Shown one piece after another: positions 1 to 51,788 of a stretch of 52,503 nucleotides of DNA. Every line of letters begins with the position of its first letter. The first letter of the stretch is position 1. A model generated the notes under the pieces. It did not search any database. It was not told the origin of the DNA and was given only the letters and a program-made list of their open reading frames with translations. This DNA comes from a virus (taxonomy: Duplodnaviria; Caudoviricetes), in the IMG/VR virus record IMGVR_UViG_3300027859_000025, positions 1-52,503 of that record; one strand, written 5' to 3'. Both the position numbers and the translations under genes were made by a program.

Positions 1-94
1 CTTCTTGATCTAACCCAGGTGTTTGCTGAGCGTACATGCGTAGTACATAGTGTACAAAAATGCAGTCGTTTTCTGTTAGTTTAAGTGTTTTCAT
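1..94 (-). CDS. Hypothetical early-region protein, 5' part only (runs off the window)
   Basis: ATG at 94, just after the stop of the upstream ORF; reads MKTLKLTENDCIFVHYVLRMYAQQTPGLDQE and stays open to the edge. Confidence 0.6.
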   Translation of the reverse strand, partial: MKTLKLTENDCIFVHYVLRMYAQQTPGLDQE

Positions 95-95
95 A

Positions 96-533
96 TTATT
101 TTGCATAGTTTTTAAGGTAATACTTTAGCATAAAGTTTAATCTTGTTATTGGTGAATATATAAGAGCTCTAGCTCTAATCATACCTTTTGATGTATACAA
201 CTCACCATTGTCTCTCTGCCATACGCATCTATAATTCTGCTCGTATGTAGGATTTAGCTGATATGCTCTGTCTCCACCGTTTTGCTTACGTACATAACCT
301 GATTTGAAACAAGCTAGCCTTAGTCTTGGTAAGTCTTTCCACCAAGTACTACCTTTTTTTTCTTCAAACCACTTAAGTCTTTGTTTAGTATATGCAGGTA
401 CAGGAAACTCAAATTCACGAGTACCATTTTTAGCCTGTTTCTGTGTTGTTACTTCTCTGATTCCGTAGTCGATAAGCAGACGCTTTACGAACTGTTCTTC
501 GAGCATAAACTGCTCTTTTTGCCAATTTGTCAT
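96..533 (-). CDS. Hypothetical phage protein (145 aa)
   Basis: ORF track; ATGA overlap with the upstream ORF in a tightly packed minus-strand cluster. Confidence 0.75.
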   Translation of the reverse strand: MTNWQKEQFMLEEQFVKRLLIDYGIREVTTQKQAKNGTREFEFPVPAYTKQRLKWFEEKKGSTWWKDLPRLRLACFKSGYVRKQNGGDRAYQLNPTYEQNYRCVWQRDNGELYTSKGMIRARALIYSPITRLNFMLKYYLKNYAK

Positions 534-766
534 AGGGTTTTTATTAATTTTAGTTGTTCTACTGTAAATTTCTTTGTATCATCTCGCCACATACGGTTGT
601 GAGTGAACTTTCTAGCCTTCGGAAAGGTAGATTTCTGTCTAACTCGTACTCGATTGTACTCGACATTTGTAAGTCCACTGCATAACCCGTCATGTGAGTG
701 CCTGCGCCTATGCTCGCTTGCACGTAATTTTTTCTGTTGTATAGAGTAATTGCATAGCTCTTTCAT
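530..766 (-). CDS. Hypothetical basic protein (about 78 aa)
   Basis: ORF track 530..781; start moved to the ACTATG at 766, the context shared by neighbouring genes. Confidence 0.7.
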   Translation of the reverse strand: MKELCNYSIQQKKLRASEHRRRHSHDGLCSGLTNVEYNRVRVRQKSTFPKARKFTHNRMWRDDTKKFTVEQLKLIKTL

Positions 767-771
767 AGTCA

Positions 772-975
772 TTACGCCCATGGATTGTCTGATTTAGGTA
801 CGTAAGTTAAACCTTTATAGTTGAACCACTCTGTGATACCTTCTTTATCTTCATCTTCATTGTAGATGAAAGCAAATTTAGCGGGTAAGTTGCCGACAGT
901 GTAGCCTTTGTAGTCTTGACCGCCAAATCTTATAAATGAATGGCCGTCTTTTTTATAGAATTTTATTTGTTGCAT
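772..975 (-). CDS. Hypothetical protein (67 aa, MQQIKFYKK...)
   Basis: ORF track 772..999 starts at a TTG inside the repeat motif; AAACTATG at 975 is the likelier start. Confidence 0.75.
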   Translation of the reverse strand: MQQIKFYKKDGHSFIRFGGQDYKGYTVGNLPAKFAFIYNEDEDKEGITEWFNYKGLTYVPKSDNPWA

Positions 976-989
976 AGTTTTGTTTATTA

Positions 990-1022
990 TATTATCCAAT
1001 AGTTATTGTATTTTGTTTGTAA
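990..1022 (-). promoter_or_regulatory. Repeated bipartite motif, copy 1 (putative phage early promoter)
   Basis: Minus strand TTACAAACAAAATACA-N7-TTGGATAATA, intergenic, about 15 nt upstream of an ATG. Confidence 0.7.
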
Positions 1023-1262
1023 CTAGAGACCTTCTTCATCATCATAATAACCTTCTAAGATCTCTTCCACGTCTTGTGATGTGAAATAACCTTCGCCATA
1101 CTGATTAATGTCTTCAGCTCTTTGCTTGATCTCATTGTATTTAGCCATTTTCCCTGCTTCGAATGATGATGCAGCGATCTCTTGCGCTATATTATTACTT
1201 ATTGTGTAGGAAGTAGCGCATGCACCTACTATTATTATGGTTTTAATTATATTTTTCTTCAT
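1023..1262 (-). CDS. Hypothetical protein with N-terminal signal/TM segment (79 aa)
   Basis: MKKNIIKTIIIVGACATSY: basic then hydrophobic N-terminus, acidic tail. Confidence 0.7.
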   Translation of the reverse strand: MKKNIIKTIIIVGACATSYTISNNIAQEIAASSFEAGKMAKYNEIKQRAEDINQYGEGYFTSQDVEEILEGYYDDEEGL

Positions 1263-1405
1263 ATTCTTTGAAAACTAATGTTATTACACTTAAAAGCGAT
1301 CCTGTATTCTTTTACAAGATTTAGAGCTTCCACTCTATTTTCTGCTTCATCTATTATTTCTGGTTCATAGGAGCCATTACTCCAATATATTATATTATAT
1401 CTCAT
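1259..1405 (-). CDS. Small hypothetical protein (48 aa), not in ORF track
   Basis: Manual translation MRYNIIYWSNGSYEPEIIDEAENRVEALNLVKEYRIAFKCNNISFQRI; its TGA overlaps the next ATG (ATGA). Confidence 0.6.
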   Translation of the reverse strand: MRYNIIYWSNGSYEPEIIDEAENRVEALNLVKEYRIAFKCNNISFQRI

Positions 1406-1535
1406 CTGAATTTTTTACTATATTATCATTGATTACCTGCAAGACTTCATCTCTAGTGATTTCACCTTGTAGTTGTTTTAGTATAAGAGAAGTCATATCT
1501 ATCTCTTTATTGTTAGTTATTTGTATAAATTGCAT
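1395..1535 (-). CDS. Small hypothetical protein (46 aa), not in ORF track
   Basis: Manual translation MQFIQITNNKEIDMTSLILKQLQGEITRDEVLQVINDNIVKNSDEI; ACTATG start; fills the gap between genes. Confidence 0.6.
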   Translation of the reverse strand: MQFIQITNNKEIDMTSLILKQLQGEITRDEVLQVINDNIVKNSDEI

Positions 1536-1551
1536 AGTATTATATTTTTAA

Positions 1552-1776
1552 TTAGTCACCTGTATAGTTATTAAATGTTGATTTAGATTTGTAGTATTGT
1601 CTACACCCTTCATCATGAAGTTGTTGTAACTCTTTGTAGTAATCAGAGTTATTTAGCCTGTCATCTCTAAATTCAGTGACATTTTGTAAGTCACCATATT
1701 GGGTGATATTGTCTATAGTACACTTGTAGATATCTTTGTCTGGAAAGTGTGGATTGAAGTGTTTAATTATTCGCAT
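1552..1776 (-). CDS. Hypothetical protein (74 aa)
   Basis: ORF track; AACTATG start. Confidence 0.7.
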   Translation of the reverse strand: MRIIKHFNPHFPDKDIYKCTIDNITQYGDLQNVTEFRDDRLNNSDYYKELQQLHDEGCRQYYKSKSTFNNYTGD

Positions 1777-1792
1777 AGTTATTTAGTATTAG

Positions 1793-1907
1793 TGGAGTGT
1801 AGAAGAATCGAACTTCTCTCACACACGTGCGCGATTTACCTACTAACGCTATAGAGTTTTTCATCTATATTAAGTACGCCACGATTTACTGCCGAGCCAT
1901 TCACTCC
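1793..1907 (-). ncRNA. tRNA-like RNA (acceptor stem and T-arm, non-canonical interior)
   Basis: 5' GGAGTG pairs with 3' CACTCC-A; AGAAG-TTCGATT-CTTCT T-arm at canonical spacing; no clear D-stem or 7-nt anticodon loop. Confidence 0.6.
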
Positions 1908-1931
1908 GAATGTTATTTATTTAGTTTATTA

Positions 1932-1964
1932 TATTATCCAACTATAGTTGTATTTTGTTTGTAA
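1932..1964 (-). promoter_or_regulatory. Repeated bipartite motif, copy 2
   Basis: Identical 16-nt and 10-nt boxes with a 7-nt spacer; about 25 nt upstream of the tRNA-like element. Confidence 0.7.
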
Positions 1965-2051
1965 CTACCATCTTGTTACATCAGTGGACCCACCAATTTC
2001 TATTGGTAATGACTTGATTTTAAGTATAATAGTGTGTATGAATTTTCTCAT
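1965..2051 (-). CDS. Possible 28-aa peptide
   Basis: MRKFIHTIILKIKSLPIEIGGSTDVTRW; stop directly abuts motif copy 2, as the upstream gene does at copy 1. Confidence 0.35.
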   Translation of the reverse strand: MRKFIHTIILKIKSLPIEIGGSTDVTRW

Positions 2052-2145
2052 ATAAGTATTATTTATAAGTGTATAATTGTTTATTAGTTTAATTTATAGT
2101 TATAGTGCTGCACTGATTATCTCAGTGAGTAATAAAGAAGTAGTA

Positions 2146-2373
2146 TTAAACTACCTCTTTATCTCTTAGTATAACTGGTACACTAGTTGAAGAAGTGTAT
2201 GACTTATACTTTTCAAAACAATTCATAGAAGTTAATTTATCTTTCATGATTTCATATACTTTATCATGATTGTAAGTGAATGACTTACCATTTTTGAAAG
2301 TTACTTCAATGATTTGATTTTTACCTATTAAAGATTTTCTGATAACAAATCTTTTTGATTTTAAATTTTGCAT
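2146..2373 (-). CDS. Hypothetical protein (75 aa, MQNLKSKRFVIRKSLIG...)
   Basis: ORF track; TACTATG start downstream of motif copy 3. Confidence 0.75.
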   Translation of the reverse strand: MQNLKSKRFVIRKSLIGKNQIIEVTFKNGKSFTYNHDKVYEIMKDKLTSMNCFEKYKSYTSSTSVPVILRDKEVV

Positions 2374-2422
2374 AGTATTATTTATTTATTAAGTTATTAT
2401 TATTATTATTTAGTTACATTAT

Positions 2423-2455
2423 TATTATCCAATTTGTAATGTATTTTGTTTGTAA
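2423..2455 (-). promoter_or_regulatory. Repeated bipartite motif, copy 3
   Basis: Same boxes and spacer length, intergenic. Confidence 0.7.
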
Positions 2456-2460
2456 TTTAA

Positions 2461-2628
2461 TTATATTATTTTATAAGTTATATTATTTTTTGTAAGTAAT
2501 TTATTTATATTAATGTTTGAAGGATTATGTAATATAAATAATTTGTTATTTATAAATTGTAAAGAAATATAATTGTTTGTTAGTATTTTAGTAGTTAATT
2601 GTATTTGATATTTATTTATAAGTAACAT
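2461..2628 (-). CDS. Possible very AT-rich 55-aa protein
   Basis: AAACTATG at 2628, about 15 nt downstream of motif copy 4; strongly I/N/K/L-biased. Confidence 0.4.
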   Translation of the reverse strand: MLLINKYQIQLTTKILTNNYISLQFINNKLFILHNPSNININKLLTKNNITYKII

Positions 2629-2642
2629 AGTTTGTTTTATAT

Positions 2643-2675
2643 TATTATCCAAAACATTCTGTATTTTGTTTGTAA
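2643..2675 (-). promoter_or_regulatory. Repeated bipartite motif, copy 4
   Basis: Same boxes and spacer; first element of the minus-strand block. Confidence 0.7.
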
Positions 2676-2929
2676 AAAAAGTCAAAATAATTTCAATGAA
2701 AAATTCAAATATATAACAAAAAAAACTGTAAAAAACAGCCGGGGCTGGTAAATTTCAATCAATTTTACAATTCTGTAGGAAAAAAATCAGGAAAATACAA
2801 CACTAACTCTCGATATACGCTATGGGGCCTAGTTTTATATAGTGACATTAGCCTTATAAGGTATATAAGTAAGGGGCTTATGTCCTACTTTGTAAGTTTT
2901 CGCCTTTATCTGTAAGTATATATAGATAT
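2676..2929. other. Divergent non-coding region with A-tracts and an imperfect inverted repeat (candidate terminus, pac or ori)
   Basis: No ORF; strand switch; clustered A-tracts 2674-2800; GACAT-T-AGCC...GGCT-T-ATGTC at 2844-2884. Confidence 0.4.
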
Positions 2930-3175
2930 ATGAGCACACTACAGTTTATGGGTCGTGGCGAGCTTGTTCCAAGATTGATTGCTCAGGTTGGAGACGAAGC
3001 ATTTGCAATGAACCTACTTAAGAAACGCGGACATATGAATCCAGACGGTACATTAACAGCAGAAGGTGAGAAAAGAAACCAAATGACAGCTGAAGAACGT
3101 GCATTTGATAGAGCTGGTGAAAGCGTACACACTCATGACTACAACCCAGAAACAAATAGATTAGAAAAAATTTAA
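2930..3175 (+). CDS. Hypothetical protein (81 aa)
   Basis: ORF track; first gene of the plus-strand block. Confidence 0.75.
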   Translation: MSTLQFMGRGELVPRLIAQVGDEAFAMNLLKKRGHMNPDGTLTAEGEKRNQMTAEERAFDRAGESVHTHDYNPETNRLEKI

Positions 3176-3181
3176 ACAAAC

Positions 3182-3991
3182 ATGGCAACAATAAACAGTT
3201 ATCCAACAACGACACCTACAGGTAGTGATCTTATTATAGGTACAGATGTATCTACCACGCCTAATTCCACCAAGACGTTTACAATAGATAGTATCAATGC
3301 ATTGTCAACTGGAACACCAGCGGCTGGAACAGCAAACACTGTAGCACTATTTACTGGCGCTGTAGCAGTAGGTGATTCAACAATAGTAAGATCAGGCGCT
3401 GGCGCTACGTCTCTTTACACTTTTGGAGGAGGTACAGCTATAAACAATACATCTATAACAACAGATGATTTGACTACAACTGGTAATACAATACTAGGTA
3501 ATGCTGGCACAGATACCTTAACGGTTAACGCGGCAACAACTTTTGCAGATAACGTAACTATAAACGGAAGTTCTAAAAGCTTATCAATGGGGCAAGTTAG
3601 CCCTCTGGTGTTTCTTGATGGTGCAGGTGTCGCCAGATTAACAATTGGAGGAAATATAACAACTAATTCCATTATAAATGAATCAGGAGCTGGAGATCTT
3701 ATTTTAGTCTCTAATACTGAATTAGAAATTAAATCCGGTGAACTTGGAGAAAACTTCGCTAAATTCACAAAAGACGGACCTATTGAACTTTATTATGACA
3801 ACGCTAAAAAGTTTGAAACAACAACCACAGGTACTCTTGTAACAGGTCAGATGGATATTGCCGCACTAAACACAGCTCCAGTATCTGCTGTAGCAGCGGG
3901 AACTTTAGGAGAAATAAGATTTACAGCGGATCACATTTATGTGTGTACAGCAACAAATACATGGAAGAGAGTTGCTATATCAACGTTCTAG
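3182..3991 (+). CDS. Fibre-like virion protein
   Basis: T/G/A-rich; C-terminal GTLGEIRFTADHIYVCTATNTWKRVA resembles phage fibre ends. Confidence 0.6.
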   Translation: MATINSYPTTTPTGSDLIIGTDVSTTPNSTKTFTIDSINALSTGTPAAGTANTVALFTGAVAVGDSTIVRSGAGATSLYTFGGGTAINNTSITTDDLTTTGNTILGNAGTDTLTVNAATTFADNVTINGSSKSLSMGQVSPLVFLDGAGVARLTIGGNITTNSIINESGAGDLILVSNTELEIKSGELGENFAKFTKDGPIELYYDNAKKFETTTTGTLVTGQMDIAALNTAPVSAVAAGTLGEIRFTADHIYVCTATNTWKRVAISTF

Positions 3992-4047
3992 TAAAATTCG
4001 CCAAAACCAAGTGAGTATATAAATATAAAGAATTTAAAAATAAAAAT

Positions 4048-5232
4048 ATGAATTTCGGCTACGTAAAAGACACAGCTGGTATAACCAAGCCAATAAATCT
4101 AGATGACATAAAAATTATAAATGTCACCGCAGATAGTATAATAATAAGATATAATTTAACTGGAACATCAAATATTTTTGATGAATTAGCTTTCTTTATA
4201 TCTTTTAATAACACAGGCTCAATATCAACAACTCAAATAGAATCTCAATTCTATAGTTGGTTACAAAATGCATTAATTTCCACTTCTCCATTAAAAACTA
4301 GTTTAAACTCAGCGATGCCTCAACTAGAGATTGTTACAGCAGGTTTAATTAATGCGGCTGGTTATAGAGATGGTACTTTTGGTGCTGCTGTAGATGAAGC
4401 TGCGGCTTGCGCATCCACTCCAGCAACAAACTGTATAGTTGAATCCAAAGTTGGAACTCCAGCGGTTGGTACTTTAGTTTTGTCTAAACCTTCAGCCACG
4501 GATTTAGATCCTATTGCAGATGGCACATATGCATTGAGCGTAGGTGGTTCTAAATATTTTATTAGTCTTAAAGGATCTAGATTAACAAGCATCGTTGTTT
4601 GTCCTTTAGTACTAGATTTTGTGTTTGATCCTAATCAAAACGCTTCTGGTAGTGCTTCTGCTGCAAATTATGTCACTTTATCTACCACCAACAATGCCAC
4701 TTTCACTAATAGTTATTATGGAGCATTTGCTATGTCGCCTGCTTTTGGTAGTGGTAGCTTTGGAAGTTGCTCTTTTTTACAAGGATCTAATGATAGAACT
4801 TGGCCATGTGGATATATAATAAATGGCTTTTTAGACGCAGCTAAAGGATTAGGTCAATTACCTGCTTTCGGTGTTAAACTAGCAGATCCTGCTGTATCTA
4901 GTTACAATAATGCCGAGTTATATGTATCTGATGACTATTATGTCACTGGCAATAAAGATTTAGCTACATGGGTGGCTTTTAATGAAGATTATTGGCTTCA
5001 AGGGTTTAGTTATTTTGGAACTGGAGCTAATCCTCCAGCGCCTCCAGCTCTAAATACGGTTTATAGCATGCTAATCAACAACTCAATTGCAACCGACCCA
5101 AGTACATTAGCAGCAAGAGGTAGAATATTTTTACCACCCGCAACTTCATTTAGTGGTGGCGCAACTTTTGCAACTACTACTTACTTGAATTTAAGCACAA
5201 CTGGAATACTAGATCAAGCTTCAAGCTGTTAA
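4048..5232 (+). CDS. Putative virion or receptor-binding protein (394 aa)
   Basis: A/G/S/T-rich, low-charge composition; adjacent to the fibre-like gene. Confidence 0.5.
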   Translation: MNFGYVKDTAGITKPINLDDIKIINVTADSIIIRYNLTGTSNIFDELAFFISFNNTGSISTTQIESQFYSWLQNALISTSPLKTSLNSAMPQLEIVTAGLINAAGYRDGTFGAAVDEAAACASTPATNCIVESKVGTPAVGTLVLSKPSATDLDPIADGTYALSVGGSKYFISLKGSRLTSIVVCPLVLDFVFDPNQNASGSASAANYVTLSTTNNATFTNSYYGAFAMSPAFGSGSFGSCSFLQGSNDRTWPCGYIINGFLDAAKGLGQLPAFGVKLADPAVSSYNNAELYVSDDYYVTGNKDLATWVAFNEDYWLQGFSYFGTGANPPAPPALNTVYSMLINNSIATDPSTLAARGRIFLPPATSFSGGATFATTTYLNLSTTGILDQASSC

Positions 5233-5263
5233 ACGCGTCACTAATTATACTTAAAATAAAAAA

Positions 5264-5602
5264 ATGGATAAATATATATTAATAAACAAAGAAGCCAAAG
5301 GCGTACTCAGTAAAGATGAGATAGTTGGATTAGTAGGAACTCATACTTTAATAGATTATGATGTAGAGCTTGTAGGCGCTATACCTGGTTTTAGAACTTA
5401 TCTACTTGATGATTACGCGGGAACAGGTGCTTTAAATGCAAACCTTATTCTATCTGCAGGACTCGCGGCAGATCAACCTAAAGCTAAAAAACTTTTTTTA
5501 GATTACTTTGTAAAAGCATTTGAAGAATTATCTATTACTTCAAATTCCACGGTGGTATTTTATCCACCAACGGGAATAAGTATAGGTACTGTATCAGGAT
5601 AA
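5264..5602 (+). CDS. Hypothetical protein (112 aa)
   Basis: ORF track; A-rich leader. Confidence 0.7.
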   Translation: MDKYILINKEAKGVLSKDEIVGLVGTHTLIDYDVELVGAIPGFRTYLLDDYAGTGALNANLILSAGLAADQPKAKKLFLDYFVKAFEELSITSNSTVVFYPPTGISIGTVSG

Positions 5603-5655
5603 CATACCCGGCACGGGAAAGTGCAAACCAAATAATAACATAAAAACCAAAACCA

Positions 5656-5946
5656 ATGACGTTTTTTTACGAGACTAATTCGTGGACTAGTCAACCACAA
5701 CCAACTAAAGACCGAATCAAACTATGGAACCATATAGCTGATAAAGCAAACTGGCGCATAGTTCAATTACCAAACGGTTATTACCAAACAGAATATCAAG
5801 ATCTTCAAGATGAAGAAAAATGGATTGACGTCACAAGACGTGAAACTATGGAAGCGGCAGAAACTGCAATTAATAAGACTGTTGAACACTACGCAAAGAA
5901 AGTTGAATTTTTAAACGGACCGAAAGTAGTTAAAACCTTTAAATGA
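5656..5946 (+). CDS. Hypothetical phage protein (96 aa)
   Basis: ORF track; globular composition (NWRIVQLPNGYYQTE). Confidence 0.8.
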   Translation: MTFFYETNSWTSQPQPTKDRIKLWNHIADKANWRIVQLPNGYYQTEYQDLQDEEKWIDVTRRETMEAAETAINKTVEHYAKKVEFLNGPKVVKTFK

Positions 5947-6053
5947 AAAAGTTAAAAACACCAGCAATAGTTTTAATAGCAGTTGCTGGAACTTTTCTAA
6001 CCATTATGGCTTATTTTCTTGCAATAGTAGGAATTATAAGTCTTTTTAAATAA
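5943..6053 (+). CDS. Small membrane peptide (36 aa), not in ORF track
   Basis: MKKLKTPAIVLIAVAGTFLTIMAYFLAIVGIISLFK; ATGA overlap with the previous stop. Confidence 0.6.
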   Translation: MKKLKTPAIVLIAVAGTFLTIMAYFLAIVGIISLFK

Positions 6054-6071: not shown

Positions 6072-7628
6072 ATGTCAGACGCAATAGTCAAAAACCTAAA
6101 CTTTGGTGATGATGCCAGGGTTAATGTATTTAAAGGAATTGAAAAACTAACGCAAGCTGTTAGTTCCACGCTTGGAGCTAGCGGCAAATGCGTTATGTTA
6201 GAGGATCACACTGGAAGACCAATCATAACTAAAGATGGTGTAACAGTTGCAGATTCTATAATACTGCGAGACCCAGTGGAAAACATGGGTGCTACGCTTT
6301 TAAAAGAAGCAGCTCGTAAAACAGTGCAAGAAGCCGGCGACGGAACCACTACGGCTACAGTACTTGCTCATGCGATACTTGAAGAAGCTTACAAAGTAGC
6401 TAACAAAACAAACTCAAGAGAGTTAAAAGACGGTATTAATTCAGCTATTGAAAAAGTGGTTAAGTATTTAAAACTACTTACAGTAGATGTTAAAGGTAGT
6501 ATGATAGATCAAATAGCTACTATATCTACAAACAATGATCCTGCGCTTGGAAAAATTATTGCAGATGCTTTTAGATCTGTAGATAACACAGGTGTAGTTA
6601 TGATGGAAACGGCTTCAGATGGTAAAACACATGTAGAAGTTGTTGATGGTGTTCAATACGACAAAGGTCTTAAGAACTCACACTTTGTAACTAACCAAGC
6701 AACAAAGACTGCTGAACTAGAAAATCCACTAGTGCTTTTACTAGAATCACCAGTTGATACAATACGACAGATTCAATCTGTGCTAGAGTACGTAATAAAA
6801 AACAACAAACCTTTGCTTATTATAGGCGATTTAGAACAAGGTGTTTTATCCGCTCTAGCTATGAATAAAATGAAAGGCAACATTAAAGTGAATGTTATTG
6901 ATGCTCCAACGTTTGGAATAAACAAGCAACAAATGCTTCAGGACCTTTCATTACTTACTGGTGCTACTATTATAAATGAAGACTTAGGTGATGACATGGA
7001 AATGATACAGCCTGAGCATTTAGGTAGTTGTGTTAAGAGTGTTACATCACACGAAGATACAATACTACAAGTAGAAGAATCACCAAAAGAAGTTATAGAC
7101 GTTATAAATGAAATTAAGTCTAAGCTTTTGAAAGAAAAAAATCCTAATAAGCTTATAAAGCTTGAAAAAAGATTAGCCATGCTGTCTGCTAAAATAGCAA
7201 TAGTTAAAGTAGGTGCTAATTCAGAAATAGAATTAAAAGAAAAAACAGATAGGGTAGAAGATGCTATCTGTGCTACTAAAGCTGCTATCAAAGAAGGGAT
7301 TGTTCCTGGTGGTGGTATTGCTCTATTAAACGCTGCAACAAATATAACAGCTAAGTCACTAGGTGAAGCGGTTTTATTAGAAGCTATTAAAGCGCCTTTT
7401 GAAACTATACTTGAAAACGCAGGTGTTCAGGATGTTGAAACACCTACTAGAAAAGGACAAGGCTACAATGTGGTTACAGGAAAAATGGTAAATATGATTA
7501 AGTCGGGTATTATAGATCCACTACTAGTCACCAAGAGCGCTCTTCAAAATGCAGCTTCTGTAGCAACAACAATATTATCTACTGATTGTGTAATTAATAA
7601 TTTAAGAATTGATGAAAGCAATAGGTAG
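6072..7628 (+). CDS. groEL: Phage-encoded group I chaperonin GroEL
   Basis: [47 protein letters not shown] and GIIDP motifs; no C-terminal GGM tail. Confidence 0.97.
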
Positions 7629-7872
7629 AAACTTAATAATAAACAAAGCAAAAGAAGGGACTACTAAAACAACTGGTGGTCTTTTACTTGCTGAGAGCCA
7701 AAGAGACGATATACGTTATGTTCAGGCTACAGTAGTTTCTGCAGGAGACGAAGTAGCAGGTGTCAAACCAAATGATATAATATACTTTGATCGTCACGCT
7801 GGCCACAAAATAGAAGTTGATAAAGAATCTTATCACGTTATAAAATCAGGTGACATAGTCGTTGTATTATGA
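7612..7872 (+). CDS. groES: Co-chaperonin GroES
   Basis: TTGGLLL mobile loop, ATVVSAG, VKPNDIIYF, DIVVVL; overlaps the 3' end of groEL. Confidence 0.92.
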   Translation: MKAIGRNLIINKAKEGTTKTTGGLLLAESQRDDIRYVQATVVSAGDEVAGVKPNDIIYFDRHAGHKIEVDKESYHVIKSGDIVVVL

Positions 7873-33554: not shown

Positions 33555-36500
33555 ATGACAATAGAAGAAAAAACTATAGAACTTCAATCGGTTAGTCCAC
33601 CATTGACAACGCCTGAGATTATTGCTGAGCTTGGAAAATGGCAAGCCGCTCAATCTATTCAAGCTCTTCAAGAAGATAACTCCCCTACTAACCCGGGTAG
33701 GTCTGCTACTTTTAAGGAAGAAAAAGAAGAAGTAATTGAAACTCCAGAAGTTGATGATGAAGAGATTATTAATGAAGAAGAAGAGGGAAATCAAGAAGTT
33801 GTTGCGGAGGAACAGGATGCGACTGTAACAACTACACCGGACAATGCATCCGAGGAAGAAGATACGGAATCTCCATCGGAAGATGGTTCATTGGAATCAC
33901 AAGAACCTGAAGAAGAAGAGAGTTACGAAGTAATTCGTAAAAGATTTTTTGATACAGTTCAGAAACAAAAAAACGAAACTGGCAGAAGAAACGCTATAGA
34001 TACTGCTGTAAAAGACGCATACAAAGATGTAAACTCTGATGTTGAAATAGTAAATTCAGGTGAAGAAGTTGTAGATGGTGATTTTACTTACAAATATGTG
34101 TCAGATGTAGACAAAGAAGGTAATTTAGATTTACAAGTTTTTTACAAAGGCAAAGATGATGAAGAGTTTATCAACGCTTCAGAACGCGCTAAAAACAATC
34201 CTAAAAATGTAGCTTTACAGAATCAAGAAGCAGCTATACAATCTCAACTAGGGTTTTTGCCAGCTGAAGTAAAAGAGCAAGCTAATGCTATTTTAAACTA
34301 TACTCCTCCACCTAAGCCACAAGATTTTGATCCAAATAGAGAAGGTACGCAATCTTTCGATGATATGCTTATTTATAATTATCAAGAACAAGATATTGTA
34401 AATCAAATGTCAGAGGCTGATAGGTTAGTTTATGATTCTCAAAAAAAATTAGAGGCTGCTAAAAATAATTTTAATGAAATATTAGAATCCGATCCAAAAA
34501 TAAAAGCTTGGTACGAAGATTTAAAGAAAAAAATGGGTGATTATGATACCCAAAAAGCTGAAATACAAAAAAAAATAGATGCTCTTCCCGTGGGAGAAAC
34601 TGGCAAATTAGCTGAGCTTGAGCAAGAGCTAGAAAATTTAGATGAAAAATTTAAAGATATAAATATATTAAAAGGAGAATCTATGCGAGTTGCTCTAGAC
34701 GAAGAGCTTAATGCTATGATGCCTGATATTAAAGCTAAAGCATATGAATCAACTATAATAAAACCTACCGAAGAACCATCTATGTTTAATATAGTTGGTA
34801 AAGTTTTTAGAGGAGCTGGGCAAAGAAAATTAAGTAAAGGTCAAGCTGCTATTTCAACTGTAATGGGAGATATTTTAGACCCTGTAGATACAGATCTTTT
34901 ACAACAACAAGAATTTTACGAGCAAGCTAAGAAAGAATATGCTAAGAAAAACAAAGTAGACTTAAACACTGTCACAGACGCAGATGTTAGAAGTATTGTA
35001 GAGGATAAATACGTACAATTTTATACAGAACAAGAAACTAATAGATTATATAGAAACTACTCTGAAAGCCTAATAGAGGATATAGAAAAAGATTTTTTTG
35101 CAAAATATGTTGTTAGTAATATACCTGGAGTTGGTAAAACTTTAGCTAGCTTTACACCTACTTTTGCTAAAATGTTTGGTTTTAAAAATATAGAAGATAT
35201 TTTTGGAGACACAACTCAAGAAAAAAAAGAACAATTAATTAAAGCCGCTGACAATCTAGATCTAAACCAAAAAATAGTAATAGATAAATTAGCTCAACAA
35301 ACAGTTGCAGCAGAAACGTTTAAAAATCTAGGTCGATATAATACTACTTATTTAACTGAAGAAGATGCCGCAAAAGCAAGAGAAGAAATAAGATTGTCAA
35401 ATTTAACAATAAGATCTAACATAGATATTATTGAAAAAGGATTTGATGAAATGGTAGAAAGAGTTGATAGTGTACAAAAATCAGAATTGTTTGACCAGTA
35501 TTATGCTAAGAATTATGGTTTTGTAACTGAACTTGGTGGTAGAGCCGCGGCGATGGGTCTAGATTTGTTTGTAAATGGTTTAGCAGAATACTCTGAAAGA
35601 ATGGGTATTAACGTAGCAAGTCTTGGAGCCACTGGTATAGCTCTAGAAGGACTATACAATAAATTAACTGGAGAAGATTTAAGTAAAAAACTAACAGATA
35701 AATTTACCGGCGGTGTTGATTCTTTAATAGAGTATTTAAATAATGAAATGGCGCCACCTACTACTCTTAGTGACATTGAATCTGGAATGGACGTAGCTAG
35801 ATGGGCTGCGGGTAGCTTAGGTCAACAACTACCTATTTACGGCGCGATATACTTATCAGGCGGTACATATGCTCCTATACTTATTGGTGCCGCGGTGGCA
35901 GGTAATAAGTTTAGAGAAATGCAAAAAGAAATAGATCTTGGAACTGCTGATTATAATTGGTGGCAAATGTATGGAACTGCTAATTTAACAGGAATTTCCG
36001 CTGCAGCTACAGAATACGTTACTCAAGGTATGCTAAATAGGTTAAAATTTTCTTATCAAAATATACCTGGTTTTAAAGTAAGTTTTAACGAAACAATGAA
36101 AGGCTTTTTATCTTCTACAGGTAGATGGGCACGAGACATGGGTGAAGAAATACCTAGTGAAATGTTAGATGAACTAATAGGTAACATTGGTGATAAATAC
36201 ATACTTGGTAAAAAAGATGTAAATCTTTTTGATAATCTAGGCGAGACAGCTTTGAGTACGCTTTGGACTGCTGGTGTTGCGATAAGAGCTCCATTAATTG
36301 GTCATCAAATTTTAGCTCCTTTTAGAAGCAAACAGTCATATCAGACAATAGGGGAAGGAGTTGCTAGAATAAGCGAGCTTAACGAGCAATTAGCTACCAA
36401 TAAAGATCTGAGTGTTGAGGCTGTTCAAAAAATAAAAGATGAGATTAGCGCTATAACCGTTAATAACATGAAAGCTTTAAAAATAGATATTAATAGACTA

Positions 36501-39500
36501 GATGATCTTACTGCTGATGAGAAAAAGATTTTATTAAACAACAAGGCTAAAGAGTATGAGATAATAAGATCAATACAAGAAATTAATAACGATAATACTA
36601 TTGATCAAAAAACTAAACAAACTTTAATAAGTTTGAAAAATCAAGAGTTACAAAGCATATCTACTAATTCTACTCAAATACTAGCTCCATATATAATAGC
36701 AGAAAATAAAGCCAAAAACGAGCCTATTATAGATGAAGCAATTAAAAACGTAGAGCAAGTAACTAAAAAAGTTTTAGGTGAAGGTATTAATGTTATAGAT
36801 GACATGAATAACCTGCCAGAAGGTATACCTAAATTTGTTGATGCTTATGTAGATCCTAAAACAAATCAAATATACATAAACAAAGAGTGGGCGGCTTCAG
36901 TCGGGGCGGTCACGGCGGCCGAGCACGAGTTGTTGCACAAGATACAAAAATCAATGTTTGACTCTACTGATCCAAAAGTTAGAGCAAAAGCTCTTGAACT
37001 TGTAGAAGATTTTAAAAAGACTTTAAGTAAAAAAGAAAGAAATTTAGTACAACAAAGAATTGATGCAAACTATCGTTATGAAATGAACGATGATGGTAGT
37101 TTTGTGTTAGACGATCAAGGTAATAAAATAGAAAAAGACCCGGCTGCATATGCAGAAGAATATTTTAATGTTTTCTCTGATCTTGTGGGTAAAAATCAAA
37201 TAGGTTTTACTGATAACTTAGGTGAAAACCTGCTTAGATTTTTAAACAAATTAAAAGAATCTGTTTTTGGACCAGCTGGTTTTACAAACTTAGAATATCA
37301 AAATGGTAGAGACGCGTACAACTTTATAAAAGATTACAACAAAAGTATAAAAGAAGGTAAAGTATCTGAAAGAGCAGAGGCTTTAATTAGAAAAGGTGCT
37401 TTAACAACTAGTGATAGAACATCGTCGTCTATAACTGTAAATCCAGCAGAACAAGCAGCCGGTTATCAAGTAACAAAACAAGCATCAGATCTTGCCGCTG
37501 ATGTAAAATCTGGTGAAAAAACTAATGAACAACTAATTGTAGACGCTGCTCCAAAGAACGAGGCAGACCCACAGGTTAGAATAGCATCACAGGATGCATT
37601 AGTAGAAGCTAATTGGCCCGTTATAAGAAAAGCATTAAATATTGATCCTACTGGCAAGATTCCACAACCTTTTATAAAACTAGCTGTTCAAGAAATGTTT
37701 AGAGATACATTTCCGGGCAGAGGTGTTGAAGCTAAGTTTTTTGATAAGTTTAATCCTAAGTTAAAAAACAAGGTTACTACGTTTCTTGAAGGTCAGTTAA
37801 ACATGAGAACTGGAGATATATTAGAAAGAGCTAAGGCTTTAGAATCAGAAAAACAAGATTTAGGAATTGAAAAAGCAGGTGGGGTAGTAGACACTAGTAC
37901 AACTAAGACTGTAACAACTAAACGTTCTAGAACGCCTAAAACACCAACTGAAACAGTTAAATATTCTGATACAATTATAGAAAAAGCAGGTGTTAAAGAC
38001 AAAGTAGAGCTTGAAGCTAAAATAACAGAAGAAACTAGAAAAGGATTTGAAGACGTAGAAGTAGAAAGGTTTGGTCAAACAAAAGACGTTCCGCGAGGCG
38101 TAGCCGATATATATGGTGATATGCTTGGTTTGAATCCAGAAACAATTACTGATAAAACTAGAACATATCAAAACTACGATGAAGCTGGTTTAAACGCTGC
38201 TCAAAGATTTTTATTAGCTAACGCGGCTAGTGATTATGCAAGGCTACCTAAAACTAAAGACGAGACTACTACACGTGGCAGAGGTACTTTCATACCTAAA
38301 AATATGAAAGATGCTCTGTATACTGATGGTAAACTTACAGGTACACTAAAAGACTATATGGATCTTCTTAGAAGCAAGCCTACAGGTAAGTTATATAGAG
38401 ATAGTAAATATGCTCAACTAATACGAGGTTTATTAAACACTCATATTAGAAATCGTATGTTTGAAACTTTAGTGCCTACAACACCTCAGCGATTACGTGG
38501 TGGTGCTAAGTTTAGTATTACCCAAGCGCAAAGACCTGGTTTATATAAGGTAGGTAGCGAAGATGGTCTTGTAGTAATGAGAGACTCTGCTATAAAGTTC
38601 GCTAAAGATAATAATATAAAAGTTGAGTTTGAAAATCCTGATGGTACATTCACAGAATTAAATGTAAATAACTTTAATGCATCAAATCCTAAAGCTGTAG
38701 AATATTTAAAAAGAAATATAGAAAACGAACTTTGGAAGCACGTTCCACTAGAATCTTTAACTAGAGGAACTATGGTAGATTATAGTTCTAAAGGCAATGC
38801 TATATTTTTTGACTCAAAACAATTTGATAAAATATTAGATAACGCTTATAGTAATAGAAAAAAATGGTTAGCTGAAGGTAATACTCTTTCATACGATCAA
38901 GCAGAGTTAAAACAAAGTATTAAAGTAGCGTTTGGAACTAAATCTCCGTCTTTAGTAACTGGAAATTACGCTAAAGAAAGTGCTAAAAGAAAAGTAGACG
39001 CAAATGCTAAAGGTGTTAAAATTATATTGCAAGGCGGAGCAAATGCTATAAAAGCAGACCCAGCTAATTATTTATCTTTACTAGCTATTTACGGAACACA
39101 ATCATCTTCTTCTTCTCATTTAGTTAGAAACATGGCGGTTGACATGGGTCTTAGTGAAGAATATCTGAAAGCTAAACGATCAAAAGATGGCAATACGGTA
39201 AAAGAGCATGTTTATCCAGCTAATGAAATGGCTTCTTTTATGTATCTAGCTCAGCTTTATGATGATGTAGATGCCATAATGCCTATTGTTAAAAAAGCTT
39301 ATTTTCAACTAGGTATAACAGAAATACAAGATAATAAGTTAATAGACACAGATGGCACGTATGGTGAAAAATATAATTACAAATCAACACAAACACAGCT
39401 TTTTTATGATGGTTTAAAAGAATATTTTAAAACTGGTGATGAAAGTAAAATAAAAAATGCATTAATTAGATATTTTAATCCTCAAGTAAATGAAAATTCT

Positions 39501-42500
39501 AGTGGAGACAATATACAAGGTATTAATAGTAATACTTTAGAGATAATGGGTAAAACCGTAGCTGAAACCTATACGCGTCAATTGCCTAAATCAGATCAAA
39601 ACTCTAATAATATATATGTTCAAAACGAACTTACATACCAAGTGATGACTGGTGAAATAACTCAAGCAGAAGCAGTTAAAAGACTTGATGCACAGATCAG
39701 CTCTGGTAATGCTAAAGTTAAACCTAGTATTACAAATAACAATATGCAACCCAATAGCTTGAAGTTTAGTGATAAAGCCGCTGGTAATAGCGTACTTGTT
39801 ACTGATGAGCTAAACACTCTTGACAAAGCTTTAGCTGAAGGTAGAAAAATAGATAAACCTGTTAAGAAAATAAGAGTATTTGACTTTGATGATACATTAG
39901 CTAGATCAAACAGTAAGGTTATTGTTATAAATCCTTTATCTAGCATTGATAGCGATATGCTTGATATTGTAGCTAGAAGAAAATTTAAAAAAGAATTTGA
40001 AAATCTACCAAGCTTTAAACAAAACTTCAACAGCTTAAACGAGCAACAAAAACTAGAAGTTTTAAAAGAAGTACCAGGTGGGACTAAAGAAATAAACGCA
40101 ACTCAATTTGCTGAACAAGCTGCCACACTTGAAGAGCAAGGCGCTACGTTTGATTTTAGTCAATTTGAGCAAGTTATTGATGGCAAGAAAGGACCGTTAT
40201 TTGATGTTGCTAAAAAAATAGCAGACGCTAGAGGAACAGAAGATTTATTTATATTAACAGCTAGACCACAAAGTGCAGCTGGTCCTATAAAAGCTTTTAT
40301 GAAAGCTTTAGGTATTAATATACCTTTAGGTAACATAACAGGCTTAGCCGATGGTACCGCTGCTGCAAAAGGTAGATGGATCGCTGGTAAAGCAGCTGAA
40401 GGTTATAATGACTTTTATTTTGCAGATGATGCTAGTAAAAATGTTAAAGCAGTTAAAGACGTATTAGATCAAATAGATGTTAAGTCTAGAGTGCAGCAAG
40501 CCAAGTTTAGTAAGTCAGCTACATTTAATACTATAGTAAATCAAATGATTGAAGACTCTTCAGGTATTGAATCATTCAAAACTTTTTCTGCTGCTAAAGC
40601 TAAAACAATAGGTAAAGATAAAGGGAGATTTGATTGGTTAACAATGGCTTCATCAGCTGAAGATTTTAAAGGTTTATTATATAGCTTATTAGGTGATGGT
40701 AAAAAAGGTGAAGCTCAATATGAGTTTTTGAAAACAAACCTTATGGATCCGTATAACAGAGCGGAAGATTCTATAACTCAAGCTAAAATAGCAGCTGCTA
40801 ACGACTTTATGGCATTGAAAGAGCAGTTTCCAGGTTTACCTACAACATTAGAAACAGAAACAGGTGTTGGGAAGTTTACATATCAGCACGCGCTTCGTAC
40901 TTATATGTGGACTCAACAAGGTATGTCAATACCTGGGCTTTCAAAAGCTGATGCAAGAAAACTTAATAAGTTTATAACTGATGACGCTAAGTTACAAAGT
41001 TTTGCAGATCAATTAATGTCAATACAAAAAGGTAAACCATATCCTAAACCTGGTAAAGATTGGTTAGGTGGTAATCTAACTACAGATATTATTGGTGGTA
41101 TAAACAAAGTAAACAGAGCAGAGTACCAGCAAGAGTGGAGAGAAAATGTAGATATTATATTTTCACCTGAGAACTTAAACAAAATGGAAGCGGCTTATGG
41201 TACCCGCTGGCGAAAAGCTTTAGAAAATAGTTTAGCTCGTATGAAAGCTGGCACAAATAGGCTTGGTTACAACGATCAGACAAGTGCTGTACTTGACTGG
41301 GTTAACAACTCCGTTGGTGCAGTAATGTTCTTAAATACTAAATCTGCGCTACTTCAAACTATATCTGCTGTAAACTTTATAAATTGGGGTGATAATAATA
41401 TTATAGCCGCAGGTAAAGCGTTTGCAAATCAAAAGCAATTCTGGGGAGATTTTATGACTCTTATGAACTCTGATTACTTAGTACAGCGTCGTAATGGTCT
41501 TAAAATAAATGTAAGTGAATCTGAAATAGCAGACGCTGTAAAAGATTCTAAAAACAAAGTTAATGCAGCTATATCGTATTTACTGAGTAAAGGTTTTGTA
41601 CTTACTCGTTATGCAGATAGTTTTGCTATTGCTTCAGGTGGCGCTACGTTCTATAGAAATAGAATGAATAAGTATATTAAAGAAGGTATGAGCAAGGAAT
41701 TAGCTGCAGAAAAAGCTTTTCAAGACTTTAGACGTATCGCGGAAGAAAGCCAACAGTCTAGTTCACCTGATAAAATCAGTATGCAGCAAGCATCAGCCGC
41801 TGGTCGTGTTATACTTAACTGGGCTAATACACCGATGCAATATATTAGAATACAAAAGCGTGACATACAGGACTTAATAGCAGGTCGCGGTGATCCAAAA
41901 GTTAAAATGGCTAGAATAGCTTATTACGGTGTTATTCAAAACTTAATATTTAACGCTATGCAACAAGCTTTATTTGCTATAGGTTTTGGTGACGACGAAG
42001 ATGATGAGGAGAAAAGTGCGGCAAAGAAAAAGCAAGATGAAAAGAGAATAGCTAGAGTTGCAAACGGTATGATTGACTCTCAGTTAAAAGGTTTAGGTAT
42101 TGCAGGTATGGCTATGGTTGCTGTTAAAAATACTTTAATGAAAATATACGAAGAGTCTGGTAAGAAAAGACCTGAGTATGAAGCCGCGGCAATAGAGGCA
42201 TTAAGCTTCTCGCCAGCTATTAGTTCTAAATATAGAAAAATAGTAGGCGGTTTAAAAAGCTTTAGTTGGAACATGAAAGAAATGAAACAAAAAGGTTTTA
42301 GTCTTGATAATCCAGCTTATCTAGCAGGAGCTCAAATTATAACAGCAACTACAAACATACCTATTGATCGTGTTATTAAGAAAGCAAATAATATAAGAGG
42401 CATATTGAGTGAGCAATCACAAAAGTGGCAGAAAGTTCTTTTGTTTGGTGGTTGGAGCACTTGGGACGTTGGCTTGCCTTACTATGGCGGTTGGGATAAA

Positions 42501-46211: not shown

Positions 46212-46444
46212 TGAAAAGTAATTCACCGTTCTATCAAGATAAATGTGCAGAAGCAAGAGCGAAAAAGAAAGCTGAGTACATGAAAAGGAAATCAAAAACA
46301 TCAATGAAGAGAGTTGATGGTAAAATGCAAAAATACGAAAAGCCTATTAGTCAAGAGCAAAACTTAAAAGAGTTTAACGCAGAGATACAAGAGTATGAAT
46401 GTGTTAATGGGCAACTTAAATTAAGACAAATAGAAAACGATTAA
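46211..46444 (+). CDS. Basic protein (77 aa, SP-motif family)
   Basis: Starts MKSNSPFYQ. Confidence 0.75.
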   Translation: MKSNSPFYQDKCAEARAKKKAEYMKRKSKTSMKRVDGKMQKYEKPISQEQNLKEFNAEIQEYECVNGQLKLRQIEND

Positions 46445-46447
46445 ATT

Positions 46448-46588
46448 ATGGGAAAATTATTAGTAAAATTAGGATTATGGATGCAAGCTTGCTGGTGTAA
46501 GCTAATGTGTAAATGGAACTGGTTAGTATCTAAATTGATTGTAGATGTTAAAGATTGTCCAGTAGCACAGTGTGTATGTAAAAAATAA
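46448..46588 (+). CDS. Small Cys/Trp-rich protein (46 aa), not in ORF track
   Basis: MGKLLVKLGLWMQACWCKLMCKWNWLVSKLIVDVKDCPVAQCVCKK. Confidence 0.65.
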   Translation: MGKLLVKLGLWMQACWCKLMCKWNWLVSKLIVDVKDCPVAQCVCKK

Positions 46589-46634
46589 GGAACAAAGATA
46601 ACTGGGCGTACCATACCCAAAAGTTCCTGTAACC

Positions 46635-46670
46635 GAAGGGGATCTCAATCGAGGTCCCCTTCATTGTTTT
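46635..46670 (+). terminator. Terminator between convergent modules
   Basis: GAAGGGGATCTC-AATC-GAGGTCCCCTTC stem followed by ATTGTTTTT. Confidence 0.85.
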
Positions 46671-48391: not shown

Positions 48392-48392
48392 T

Positions 48393-48662
48393 TTATACTC
48401 CGTTTATTAAGTGTATTATCCATGCTATTAAACCGTTAATGTTTAAAGCAACTAAGTTCCATTGTTTACGTGATGACGTCTGGACAATGATACATACAAA
48501 ACCTATAATAAACAATATAGGATTAATAGTCCATTGCCCAGCTATCACAAAGCCTGCGCCCATGTATCCAACACGCGACGCAAACTTCTGCCAAGATGTG
48601 AGTTTATTAGTATAGCGTAAGGCTTTAATCAGCCTGTACTTCCATCTTCTTTTTCTCTGCAT
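48393..48662 (-). CDS. Small multi-TM membrane protein
   Basis: Three hydrophobic stretches after a basic N-terminus. Confidence 0.65.
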   Translation of the reverse strand: MQRKRRWKYRLIKALRYTNKLTSWQKFASRVGYMGAGFVIAGQWTINPILFIIGFVCIIVQTSSRKQWNLVALNINGLIAWIIHLINGV

Positions 48663-48852
48663 TTTCTTTTAATTTAGTTTTCAACTGCTCTATTGCTTCG
48701 TCATAACCTGGCATTAGCTTTACAGTTTCCAGCGTACCTACAGACAAGTCTTTTAAATAAGCGTTTTCATCTAACAACTGTTGTACAACTTTAATTAAAG
48801 CTTGTATCTTTTTTTCTAGCAGATCTGTTCTGCTTTGTTTACTTCCCTTCAT
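48625..48852 (-). CDS. Small coiled-coil protein (75 aa)
   Basis: ORF track. Confidence 0.7.
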   Translation of the reverse strand: MKGSKQSRTDLLEKKIQALIKVVQQLLDENAYLKDLSVGTLETVKLMPGYDEAIEQLKTKLKENAEKKKMEVQAD

Positions 48853-49021
48853 ATAAATCTTTGTATATATCTTTTTCTGTTATGTTACCAAATGTCCTCG
48901 AAGTCTTCCCCTTCATTAGCTTTGCTATAATCCGTCGGCCGTATTGCGAAAAAATCAGTATGAGTGACCCCGCCGGTAAGATGATAGAACCAATCAAGAT
49001 TAGACGCTGCGCCCTTGTCAT
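48839..49021 (-). CDS. Candidate overprinted single-TM protein (about 60 aa) overlapping the 3' end of nrdB
   Basis: MTRAQRLILIGSIILPAGSLILIFSQYGRRIIAKLMK...; bridges the gap and overlaps the next gene's start. Confidence 0.45.
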   Translation of the reverse strand: MTRAQRLILIGSIILPAGSLILIFSQYGRRIIAKLMKGKTSRTFGNITEKDIYKDLYEGK

Positions 49022-51786: not shown

Positions 51787-51788
51787 AA

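Follow-up and report, generated by a model that had tools for sequence, protein, structure and literature searches.

Phage-specific promoters that depend on a phage-encoded sigma factor are a known kind of control element. The sigma factors gp28 and gp33/34 of SPO1, gp55 of T4 and gp36 of phiEco32 serve middle or late genes and are themselves made from host-type early promoters. Among bacterial promoters, the FliA/sigma-28 and extracytoplasmic function (ECF) type consensus combines a -10 element GCCGATAA with a -35 element ending in AAC, and the primary sigma factor of the Bacteroidota recognizes TTG at -33 and TAnnTTTG at -7. In T4-type phages, promoter-early stem-loop cassettes mediate modular shuffling. 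To our knowledge, the transcription programmes of Bacteroidota phages are barely known. Here, we describe a bipartite motif, TTACAAACAAAATACA-N7-TTGGATAATA, that heads the early gene cassettes of the linear IMG/VR virus record IMGVR_UViG_3300027859_000025. The whole record (52,503 nt; 82% complete according to CheckV) was analysed and is referred to as the window, or G000. The motif is best read as a phage-family-specific promoter class, and seven of ten relatives that carry it encode a protein of the sigma-70 family.

For the crAss-like Cellulophaga phage phi14:2, the one phage of related architecture that has been studied, the middle and late promoters have been described as host-type and the giant protein gp66 as a virion RNA polymerase that is injected; in the accessible part of that report, no upstream motif is shared by the early transcripts that gp66 makes (Drobysheva et al., bioRxiv 10.1101/2020.03.07.982082). 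A limited literature search returned no description of the present motif, nor of a sigma factor in flavobacterial phages.

Results

Motif copies in the window

The motif had been noticed in a sequence-only reading of the window, which recorded four exact copies and saw it nowhere else. When both strands of the window were scanned with up to three mismatches allowed, exactly four matches were obtained, at the coordinates already recorded. All four were on the minus strand and contained no mismatch, and none of 100 dinucleotide-preserving shuffles of the window yielded a match. In a repeat scan, the pattern occurred 0 times forward and 4 times in reverse, the backwards pattern gave 0 and 0, and the motif was the top direct-repeat family of the window (D1). 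The copies and the open reading frames (ORFs) behind them are as follows.

2643..2675, minus strand: copy 1, leading in transcription order; boxes at 2675-2660 (upstream) and 2652-2643 (downstream), spacer at 2659-2653
2461..2628, minus strand: ORF of the first cassette, 55 aa, beginning MLLINKYQIQL, of low complexity (rich in N, K, I and L)
2423..2455, minus strand: copy 2, 49 nt 5′ of ORF 2146-2373 (75 aa, beginning MQNLKSKRF)
1932..1964, minus strand: copy 3, 24 nt 5′ of a tRNA-like element, which is followed by ORFs 1552-1776, 1395-1535, 1259-1405 and 1023-1262
990..1022, minus strand: copy 4, abutting the TAG stop codon of ORF 1023-1262 and 14 nt 5′ of ORF 772-975

Copy 1 heads the entire leftward block and lies 14 nt 5′ of the ATG of ORF 2461-2628; upstream of it, the minus strand codes for nothing and comprises just the divergent region 2676-2929. 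Downstream of copy 4, ORF 772-975 (67 aa, beginning MQQIKF) is followed by ORFs 530-781 and 96-533. As the earlier reading had claimed, the boxes are invariant in all four copies, the spacer has a fixed length of 7 nt and a free sequence (ATAACTA, ACTATAG, TTACAAA and GAATGTT), and every copy is located upstream of an ORF or the tRNA-like element. The distances measured are 14, 49, 24 and 14 nt for copies 1 to 4. Without the upstream box, GGATAATA was found at three more sites of the window, 9836 (plus), 26195 (minus) and 48421 (minus), where base composition predicts about 2.6 and 1.3 per strand.

Distribution of the motif among relatives

The motif is a family-wide element. While its supposed confinement to four sites held within the window, it did not hold beyond it: the exact motif was present in 18 stretches on 14 other IMG/VR contigs. 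A scan of the full genome and of related phages, which the sequence-only reading had proposed, gave the 4 copies in the window and 42 in ten relatives that were scanned whole with up to three mismatches (6, 4, 4, 9, 7, 4, 3, 3, 1 and 1 copies). All 42 were on a single strand per record and retained GGATAATA intact, and nothing was obtained with the reversed-pattern control. In complete records, the copies were clustered within about 5 kb. At the extreme start of its leftward block, one of these records, G002, carries two extra copies, in which the upstream box is more degenerate; the motif thus heads this block from the first gene. A relaxed pattern matched at least 174 stretches; among the 80 matches listed, all 21 contigs with two or more matches used one strand. 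When bacterial genomes were searched with the strict motif, just three contigs of less than 1 kb were found (L211-L213), which belong to two bins of metagenome-assembled genomes (Aliivibrio and Chloroflexota). These are most likely misbinned phage fragments, and no host inference was drawn from them.

Anatomy and predicted start site

With GATAAT taken as the -10 hexamer (-12 to -7), the upstream box extends from -38 to -23, the spacer from -22 to -16 and TTGGATAATA from -15 to -6. The upstream box contains an ACAAAC core at the position of a -35 element, which ends 18 nt before GATAAT, and the distance of the upstream element is fixed, with a spacer of 7 nt in the window class and about 8 nt in some lineages. 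The information profile was sharply bounded: positions 1-15 carried 1.0-2.5 bits, position 0 and the bases before it about 0, and the spacer little, while the content was high again at positions 25-33, of which positions 26-33 were fixed beforehand by the selection of sites. The flanks 5′ of position 1 were unrelated between copies and the spacer was free. The hexamer retains the A-11 and T-7 of a sigma-70-type -10 element, as had been pointed out in the sequence-only reading, and was unchanged in all 42 matches from relatives.

Downstream of GATAAT, an A/T-only stretch precedes a purine located 7 nt past the hexamer. Among 188 unique window-type sites, this base was a purine in 181; G occurred there 76 times, compared with at most 11 times at any of ten neighbouring positions. 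The same preference was found when 53 sigma-bearing loci covering all lineages were pooled, in a set of 310 unique sites that was selected by GATAATA: 307 had a purine at this base, and G accounted for 49% as opposed to 0-10% nearby. We infer that transcription starts at this purine, which would correspond to positions 2637 (A), 2417 (G), 1926 (A) and 984 (A) on the minus strand for copies 1 to 4. In 24 of the 310 sites, the first ATG of an ORF of at least 30 aa was located exactly at the predicted +1, versus 2 and 4 at the adjacent offsets. This peak is the pattern expected of leaderless mRNAs that begin there. At smaller offsets (1, 3, 5 and 6), an ATG was found in 20 sites in total, and many of these stem from the ATG within a conserved TAWATG, the G of which is the predicted +1. 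Two boxes about two helical turns apart, a -10-like hexamer and a purine start would together match the geometry recognized by a sigma-70-family holoenzyme.

Comparison with host-type promoters

In an E. coli-type scan of positions 1-3300 (TTGACA-N16-18-TATAAT, with at least four of six matches in both hexamers), no copy was listed with GATAAT, and the 14 hits obtained compared with 17.4 in shuffles. The motif is therefore not a canonical TTGACA/TATAAT promoter. Neither strand of the motif contains TAnnTTTG. As a positive control, host-type promoters were looked for in phi14:2, the middle and late promoters of which read TTG-N19-21-TAnnTTTG in its genome. The regular expression (regex) TTG-N17-21-TAnnTTTG was compared with the mean of shuffles in three sequences.

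phi14:2, second half: 10 regex matches, shuffle mean 6.0; 6 directly before genes (g070, g075, g092, g093, g108 and g110)
Window (G000): 10 regex matches, shuffle mean 6.4; 0 in an intergenic gap on the gene strand
G002: 19 regex matches, shuffle mean 7.9; 0 in an intergenic gap on the gene strand

In the phi14:2 control, 6 of 10 matches were located before genes. The earlier statement that the motif is unlike the Bacteroidota promoter is supported. One host-type match of the window ends at 44404, inside the preceding ORF and 23 nt before an ATG at 44427. In addition, a lone TATATTTG is present at 2713-2706 (minus), 31 nt upstream of copy 1, with no TTG at the right distance. This box is shared with one relative (L013/L014) and not with the others.

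A sigma-70-family protein in relatives

The complete relative G002 (66 kb, with direct terminal repeats) encodes a 250-aa sigma-like protein in its leftward block (L024:12868-13620), about 2.4 kb downstream of the last motif copy. This protein matched phrog_351, 'RNA polymerase sigma factor' (3.4e-22), the Pfam family Sigma70_r2 (30.8 bits; cut-off 24) and TIGR02937 (54.1 bits; cut-off 42.9), and it aligned to region 2, the RIPxH helix and region 4 of SigA. Judged by these matches, the protein of the relatives belongs to the sigma-70 family, with regions 2 and 4. Homologues that were 68-78% identical were present in G001, G003, G004, G005, G006 and G009, so that 7 of the ten relatives carry the gene. 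In the three relatives without a sigma match (G007, G008 and G010), the motif copies lie within 1-5 kb of a contig end and the early block runs off it. The sigma gene of G001 (G001:C1:35215-35965) is interrupted: its match contains two TAG codons, and a separate frame segment encodes the N-terminal 58 residues.

In G002, a thymidylate synthase gene lies beyond the sigma gene. The early block of the window passes beyond position 1, and its continuation begins at 52430 with thymidylate synthase. Because the window is cut where its relatives carry sigma, its own sigma gene would be located in the missing part.

None of the GenBank phages of Flavobacteriia had a detectable sigma homologue. Metagenomes yielded 8000 scored sigma candidates, all of which passed E <= 1e-5. 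Sigma peptide patterns were matched by 467 IMG/VR stretches, of which 265 encode a sigma relative. From these, the best 80 of 265 loci were analysed with up to 10 kb on each side. They contained 148 window-type motif copies on the sigma strand and 0 on the other, distributed over 32 of the 80 loci.

Lineage variants and a sigma-less relative

Most of the remaining sigma loci with enough upstream DNA contained 3-10 copies of a variant with the window-type layout. Altogether, 53 sigma-bearing loci had at least three mutually similar sites with a common layout, in which nGATAATA was kept throughout and the upstream box was lineage-specific. The base that precedes GATAATA is G, C, A or T according to lineage, and the upstream box is TTACAAAC..AATACGA, TTTGCAAAC, TTCGAAAC or CACGGACTTAT. 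In L261 and L280, one motif copy is located directly before the ATG of the sigma gene. An alignment of the sigma proteins revealed that region 2 and the RIPEH helix are almost invariant, paralleling the invariant GATAATA, and that region 4 contains either of two helix types, VSELKKQAV and VSQIK(R/K)EAI.

The cultured relative elemoF, the host of which is Flavobacterium, lacks sigma. In its genome, we found no match to the motif core and no repeated GATAATA family. Just 5′ of its first leftward gene, at 18327 and 18099 (minus), lie two canonical TTG-N19-TAnnTTTG sites; two tiny plus-strand ORFs are annotated across these host-type sites. Thus, within one structural kinship, the phages with sigma have GATAATA sites and no host-type promoters before their genes, whereas the sigma-less elemoF has host-type promoters there, a contrast that is drawn from a single phage and is not a statistic.

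Possible shuffling of the early cassettes

The flanks of the motif are mosaic. Of 14 downstream-flank clusters with at least three members, 13 were joined to two or more upstream-flank clusters, and 10 of 13 upstream-flank clusters of that size were joined to two or more downstream clusters. For instance, the MQ(N/I)L.SKRF gene (cluster D2, n=30; ORF 2146-2373 behind copy 2 in the window) was found behind 18 upstream clusters, and the Cys-rich MYC(K/R)CG gene (n=19) behind 9. Some of the clusters counted as different may be diverged homologues. The earlier suggestion that the copies act as recombination points fits these mosaic flanks, which would be expected equally if each cassette carries its own promoter.

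An ORF similar to 2461-2628 follows a motif copy in L020 and G004, and this first ORF may be a non-coding leader rather than a gene. Counterparts of ORF 2146-2373 stand behind a motif copy in many relatives; tblastn with this ORF gave no match. The starts of early genes (for example at 975, 2373 and 1535) share the context ACTATGCAA (Met-Gln). A recurrent early cassette of relatives (L033 from about 9583 onward, L016 and L018) encodes the small Cys-rich protein MYCKCG...C..C, which looks like a zinc-finger protein; the cassette is absent from what the window retains of its early region.

1793..1907, minus strand: tRNA-like element behind copy 3, with a GGAGUG/CACUCC acceptor-like stem beside a T-arm-like GAAGUUCGAUUCUUC and about 100 nt of other sequence between

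This element was not called by ARAGORN, it gave one sub-threshold chance hit in Rfam, and its fold z-score (-0.62) was not significant. Similar tRNA-like 3′ ends abut motif copies in G002 and G004, and true tRNA genes of relatives (Gln and Met) end 2-3 nt before a motif copy.

Genome layout, divergent region and probable host

The remaining features of the window are arranged as follows.

1-2628, minus strand: leftward early block of small ORFs
2629-2929: divergent gap between the leftward and rightward blocks
2676..2929: divergent control region between the leftward early and rightward virion blocks
2842-2885, plus strand: conserved inverted repeat, GTGACAtTAGCC-N19-GGCTAtTGTCAC around TTATAAGGTATATAAGTAA, with a right arm that is imperfect in the window
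2930 to about 46444, plus strand: rightward virion block, a long single-strand gene block encoding GroEL/GroES, terminase, portal, capsid-type proteins, a PF25729 protein, a 3045-aa protein and peptidase M15
33555-42692, plus strand: gene of the giant 3045-aa protein, at the position of the crAss virion polymerase
46441-52430, minus strand: nucleotide-metabolism genes (ribonucleotide reductase, MazG and thymidylate synthase)

The order of the GroEL, terminase, portal, capsid and giant-protein genes matches that of phi14:2, and PF25729, the crAss muzzle C-terminal domain, was found in one protein of the rightward block. The GroEL (PF00118, 8e-61) and GroES (PF00166) pair at 6072-7872 (plus) sits at the beginning of the virion block; phi14:2 also has a GroEL gene, and elemoF has GroEL and GroES. 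Portals of Flavobacterium, Cellulophaga, Tenacibaculum and Maribacter phages share 40-51% identity with that of the window. A Shine-Dalgarno-like 4-mer precedes 9 of the 61 ORFs of the window, and the leaders are A-rich with little G. A-rich leaders without Shine-Dalgarno sequence are the Bacteroidota pattern. Because of the portal kinship and these leaders, the host is probably a member of the Flavobacteriaceae.

A megablast search of positions 1-6000 against GenBank phages gave no match. The window was matched by 24 sequencing runs, 14 of which are on record as RNA; the RNA-labelled runs each covered 7-13% of the sampled words, and such small word shares carry no habitat information. Many contigs of this phage group stop inside or just past the early motif cluster (the window at position 1; G007, G008 and G010; L006, L007, L014, L017 and L020), which could be due to assembly breakage at the repeated mosaic cassettes or reflect real genome ends.

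The inverted repeat is kept across sigma lineages and is followed by TGTAAGTATATATAG just 5′ of the first rightward ATG at 2930. Conceivably, the repeat could be an operator or a late promoter. A candidate late promoter, CAAGTG..ACTATA, which precedes three rightward genes of the window, was rejected, as it is absent from the intergenic regions of G002. A scan for TATATA was too noisy, and no late consensus is claimed.

The giant protein had no sequence match in Pfam, PHROG or the PDB, an Atlas search gave only unnamed viral clusters, and tblastn of residues 1001-3045 gave no match. DxDxD was absent from the giant proteins of the window and G002, whereas gp66 of phi14:2 has DFDID at 1361. The conserved parts of the protein include an HExxH motif, an invariant FDFDDT in the C-terminal 975 aa, which we read as HAD-like, and a highly conserved helical C-terminus. 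An AlphaFold model of a region of this protein was all-helical and poor (predicted local distance difference test, pLDDT, 53.6). In metagenomes, the protein has at least 5058 relatives, some of which have LysM or Zeta-toxin/AAA domains in the variable N-terminal part.

Discussion

The four copies are best read as a phage-family-specific promoter class, each copy of which would start one minus-strand early cassette. At a little short of an even chance, we hold that the sites are read by the core RNA polymerase of the host once it has bound a sigma-70-family factor encoded by the phage itself. Relatives encode this factor a few kilobases downstream, in a transcription unit that the same promoters would drive, and a sigma gene placed among its own promoter set would constitute a self-amplifying circuit. 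The first transcripts could arise from weak recognition by the host, from the lone host-type -7 box at 2713-2706 or through a virion-borne protein. The sequence-only reading had proposed a phage-specific early promoter in need of a phage-supplied specificity factor. Of the first part of this proposal, the promoter-like, directional character and the position at the head of early cassettes stand, and the start of transcription is a prediction from sequence. The second part is plausible in view of the sigma gene in 7 of ten relatives, the cut-off early blocks of the other three and the contrast with elemoF; it is left incomplete by the first round of transcription and by a window without sigma.

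Several observations weigh against this explanation. A sigma gene downstream of the promoters that its product would read implies that something else must start the circuit, and in the known cascades, such as those of SPO1 and phiEco32, phage sigma factors normally serve middle or late genes. A search for a sigma gene in the window itself gave 0 matches, its presence being deduced from relatives, and both the start sites and the reader protein were derived by inference. The Sigma70_r4 match of the G002 protein (19.2 bits) is below the curated cut-off of 24.1. Furthermore, the region-4 helix does not track the upstream box cleanly: class E, with the box CACGGACTTAT, and the CACGGACTT class share the helix VSELKKQAV with the window class, and L289 combines a B-type motif with an A-type helix. 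The co-occurrence of sigma and motif could reflect shared ancestry alone. Lastly, the rightward virion genes are also without host-type promoters.

The temporal logic of the locus would suit classical early promoters that are read by the host holoenzyme, with its primary or an alternative sigma; the phage sigma made from them would then redirect transcription to the rightward virion genes. The copies precede the first genes, the unit that they would drive includes the sigma gene, the rightward genes have conserved upstream blocks of their own that differ from the motif, and the cascades governed by gp28 of SPO1 and gp36 of phiEco32 run in this manner. We nevertheless consider this unlikely, since the motif does not resemble the TTG/TAnnTTTG type used by phi14:2 and elemoF and was not picked by the E. 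coli-type scan. The range of lineage-specific boxes, from TTACAAAC to CACGGACTT, is hard to square with one conserved host sigma, and identity at all 26 specified bases, both among the four copies and between genomes with sigma proteins that are only 68-78% identical, would be unusual for host-type promoters. The problem of the first transcript would be solved if the sites were promoters for a polymerase or specificity protein delivered with the virion, as in crAss-like phages and N4, with the 3045-aa protein as candidate carrier. Identical copies are indeed reminiscent of phage-polymerase promoters, and the gene order parallels that of phi14:2 with its virion RNA polymerase gp66. We regard this as improbable: the giant proteins of the window and G002 lack DxDxD, blastp against gp66 gave nothing below E 0.1, and the giant protein has no sequence match in Pfam, PHROG or the PDB. 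A DFDDT signature in the conserved C-terminal 975 aa of this protein reads as HAD-like, the remainder is predicted to be all-helical in a poor model, and the early transcripts of phi14:2 have no common motif in the accessible part of the report cited above. A two-box layout of 38 bp with a -10-like hexamer would also suit sigma-type recognition better.

Finally, the motif might not be a promoter in the first place: a phage regulator could use it as an operator, it could act at the RNA level as a signal within a long early transcript, or cassettes could recombine at it. Two invariant boxes with a spacing of about two helical turns would likewise accommodate a DNA-binding protein, and mosaic flanks surround the copies. 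Such flanks are, however, expected of any cassette with its own promoter, and the separation of the flank clusters may reflect divergence and not a lack of homology. Copy 1 heads the block, so that there is no upstream transcript to process; a conserved hairpin is lacking and the spacer is free; and the purine at +1 and the peak of ATG at +1 are promoter features. A primary role other than that of a promoter is thus very doubtful.

Compared with the primary-sigma promoters of the Bacteroidota, the proposed sigma-read promoters share the likely host phylum, the position before phage genes, A-11 and T-7, and A/T-rich leaders that lack a Shine-Dalgarno sequence. They differ in that the -10 region has no TTTG, the 16-nt upstream box is not TTG, and the copies are identical instead of degenerate. 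With the phage-sigma promoters of SPO1, T4 and phiEco32, they have in common a phage-specific consensus unlike that of the host and a phage gene of the sigma-70 family; here, however, it is the first genes of all, and the sigma gene itself, that the special promoters precede, and we saw no early promoter of the host type. A likeness to FliA and ECF promoters resides in the GATAA core, which is clearest in sister lineages with CGATAATA, and in an upstream core that has AAC or GAC at its end, about 18 nt ahead of the hexamer. The best PDB and NCBIfam matches of the relatives' sigma also include FliA, although all subfamily matches are far below the curated cut-offs, and, unlike in FliA and ECF promoters, an extra conserved block, AATAC(G/A), is located in the would-be spacer.

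The promoters of crAss-like and N4 virion polymerases resemble the motif as a multi-copy signal heading the early region, in a genome with crAss-like virion gene order. In contrast to them, the motif has no hairpin: N4-type hairpins (a stem of 5-7 bp with a 3-nt loop) were looked for by eye in the motif copies, and with unrelated spacers, no conserved inverted repeat was seen. The giant protein likewise lacks a polymerase signature, and phi14:2 differs from the window in the missing common motif of its early transcripts, as far as the accessible part of that report goes. The arrangement also recalls the early cassettes of T4-type phages, where a repeated early promoter bounds small, freely recombined cassettes, with the differences that no stem-loop partner was seen here and that the promoter is not of host type.

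What appears new is that such promoters precede the first genes of all, that the same set takes in the sigma gene, and that a Bacteroidota phage lacks host-type promoters. The frequent leaderless starts suggested by the ATG peak, the lineage-specific series of upstream boxes and the occurrence in a very abundant group would be new as well. In a wider picture, which we put forward tentatively and consider somewhat unlikely, a very abundant group of marine Bacteroidota phages gave up host-type promoters and runs its first genes with a self-amplifying sigma factor on promoters of 33-38 bp that also drive the sigma gene. The variants of the upstream box, into which sister lineages would have diverged, could then be natural orthogonal pairs of sigma factor and promoter, and the first round would depend on virion sigma or leaky host recognition.

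The group of uncultured phages concerned is very large, as judged by the 8000 sigma candidates, at least 5058 giant-protein relatives and 265 IMG/VR sigma stretches, and the motif provides a practical marker of the early region and of cassette boundaries in its metagenomic contigs. If sigma indeed reads these sites, they would represent compact, host-independent expression parts for the Flavobacteriia, a group without such tools, and the lineage variants would constitute a natural series in which the evolution of promoter specificity can be followed.

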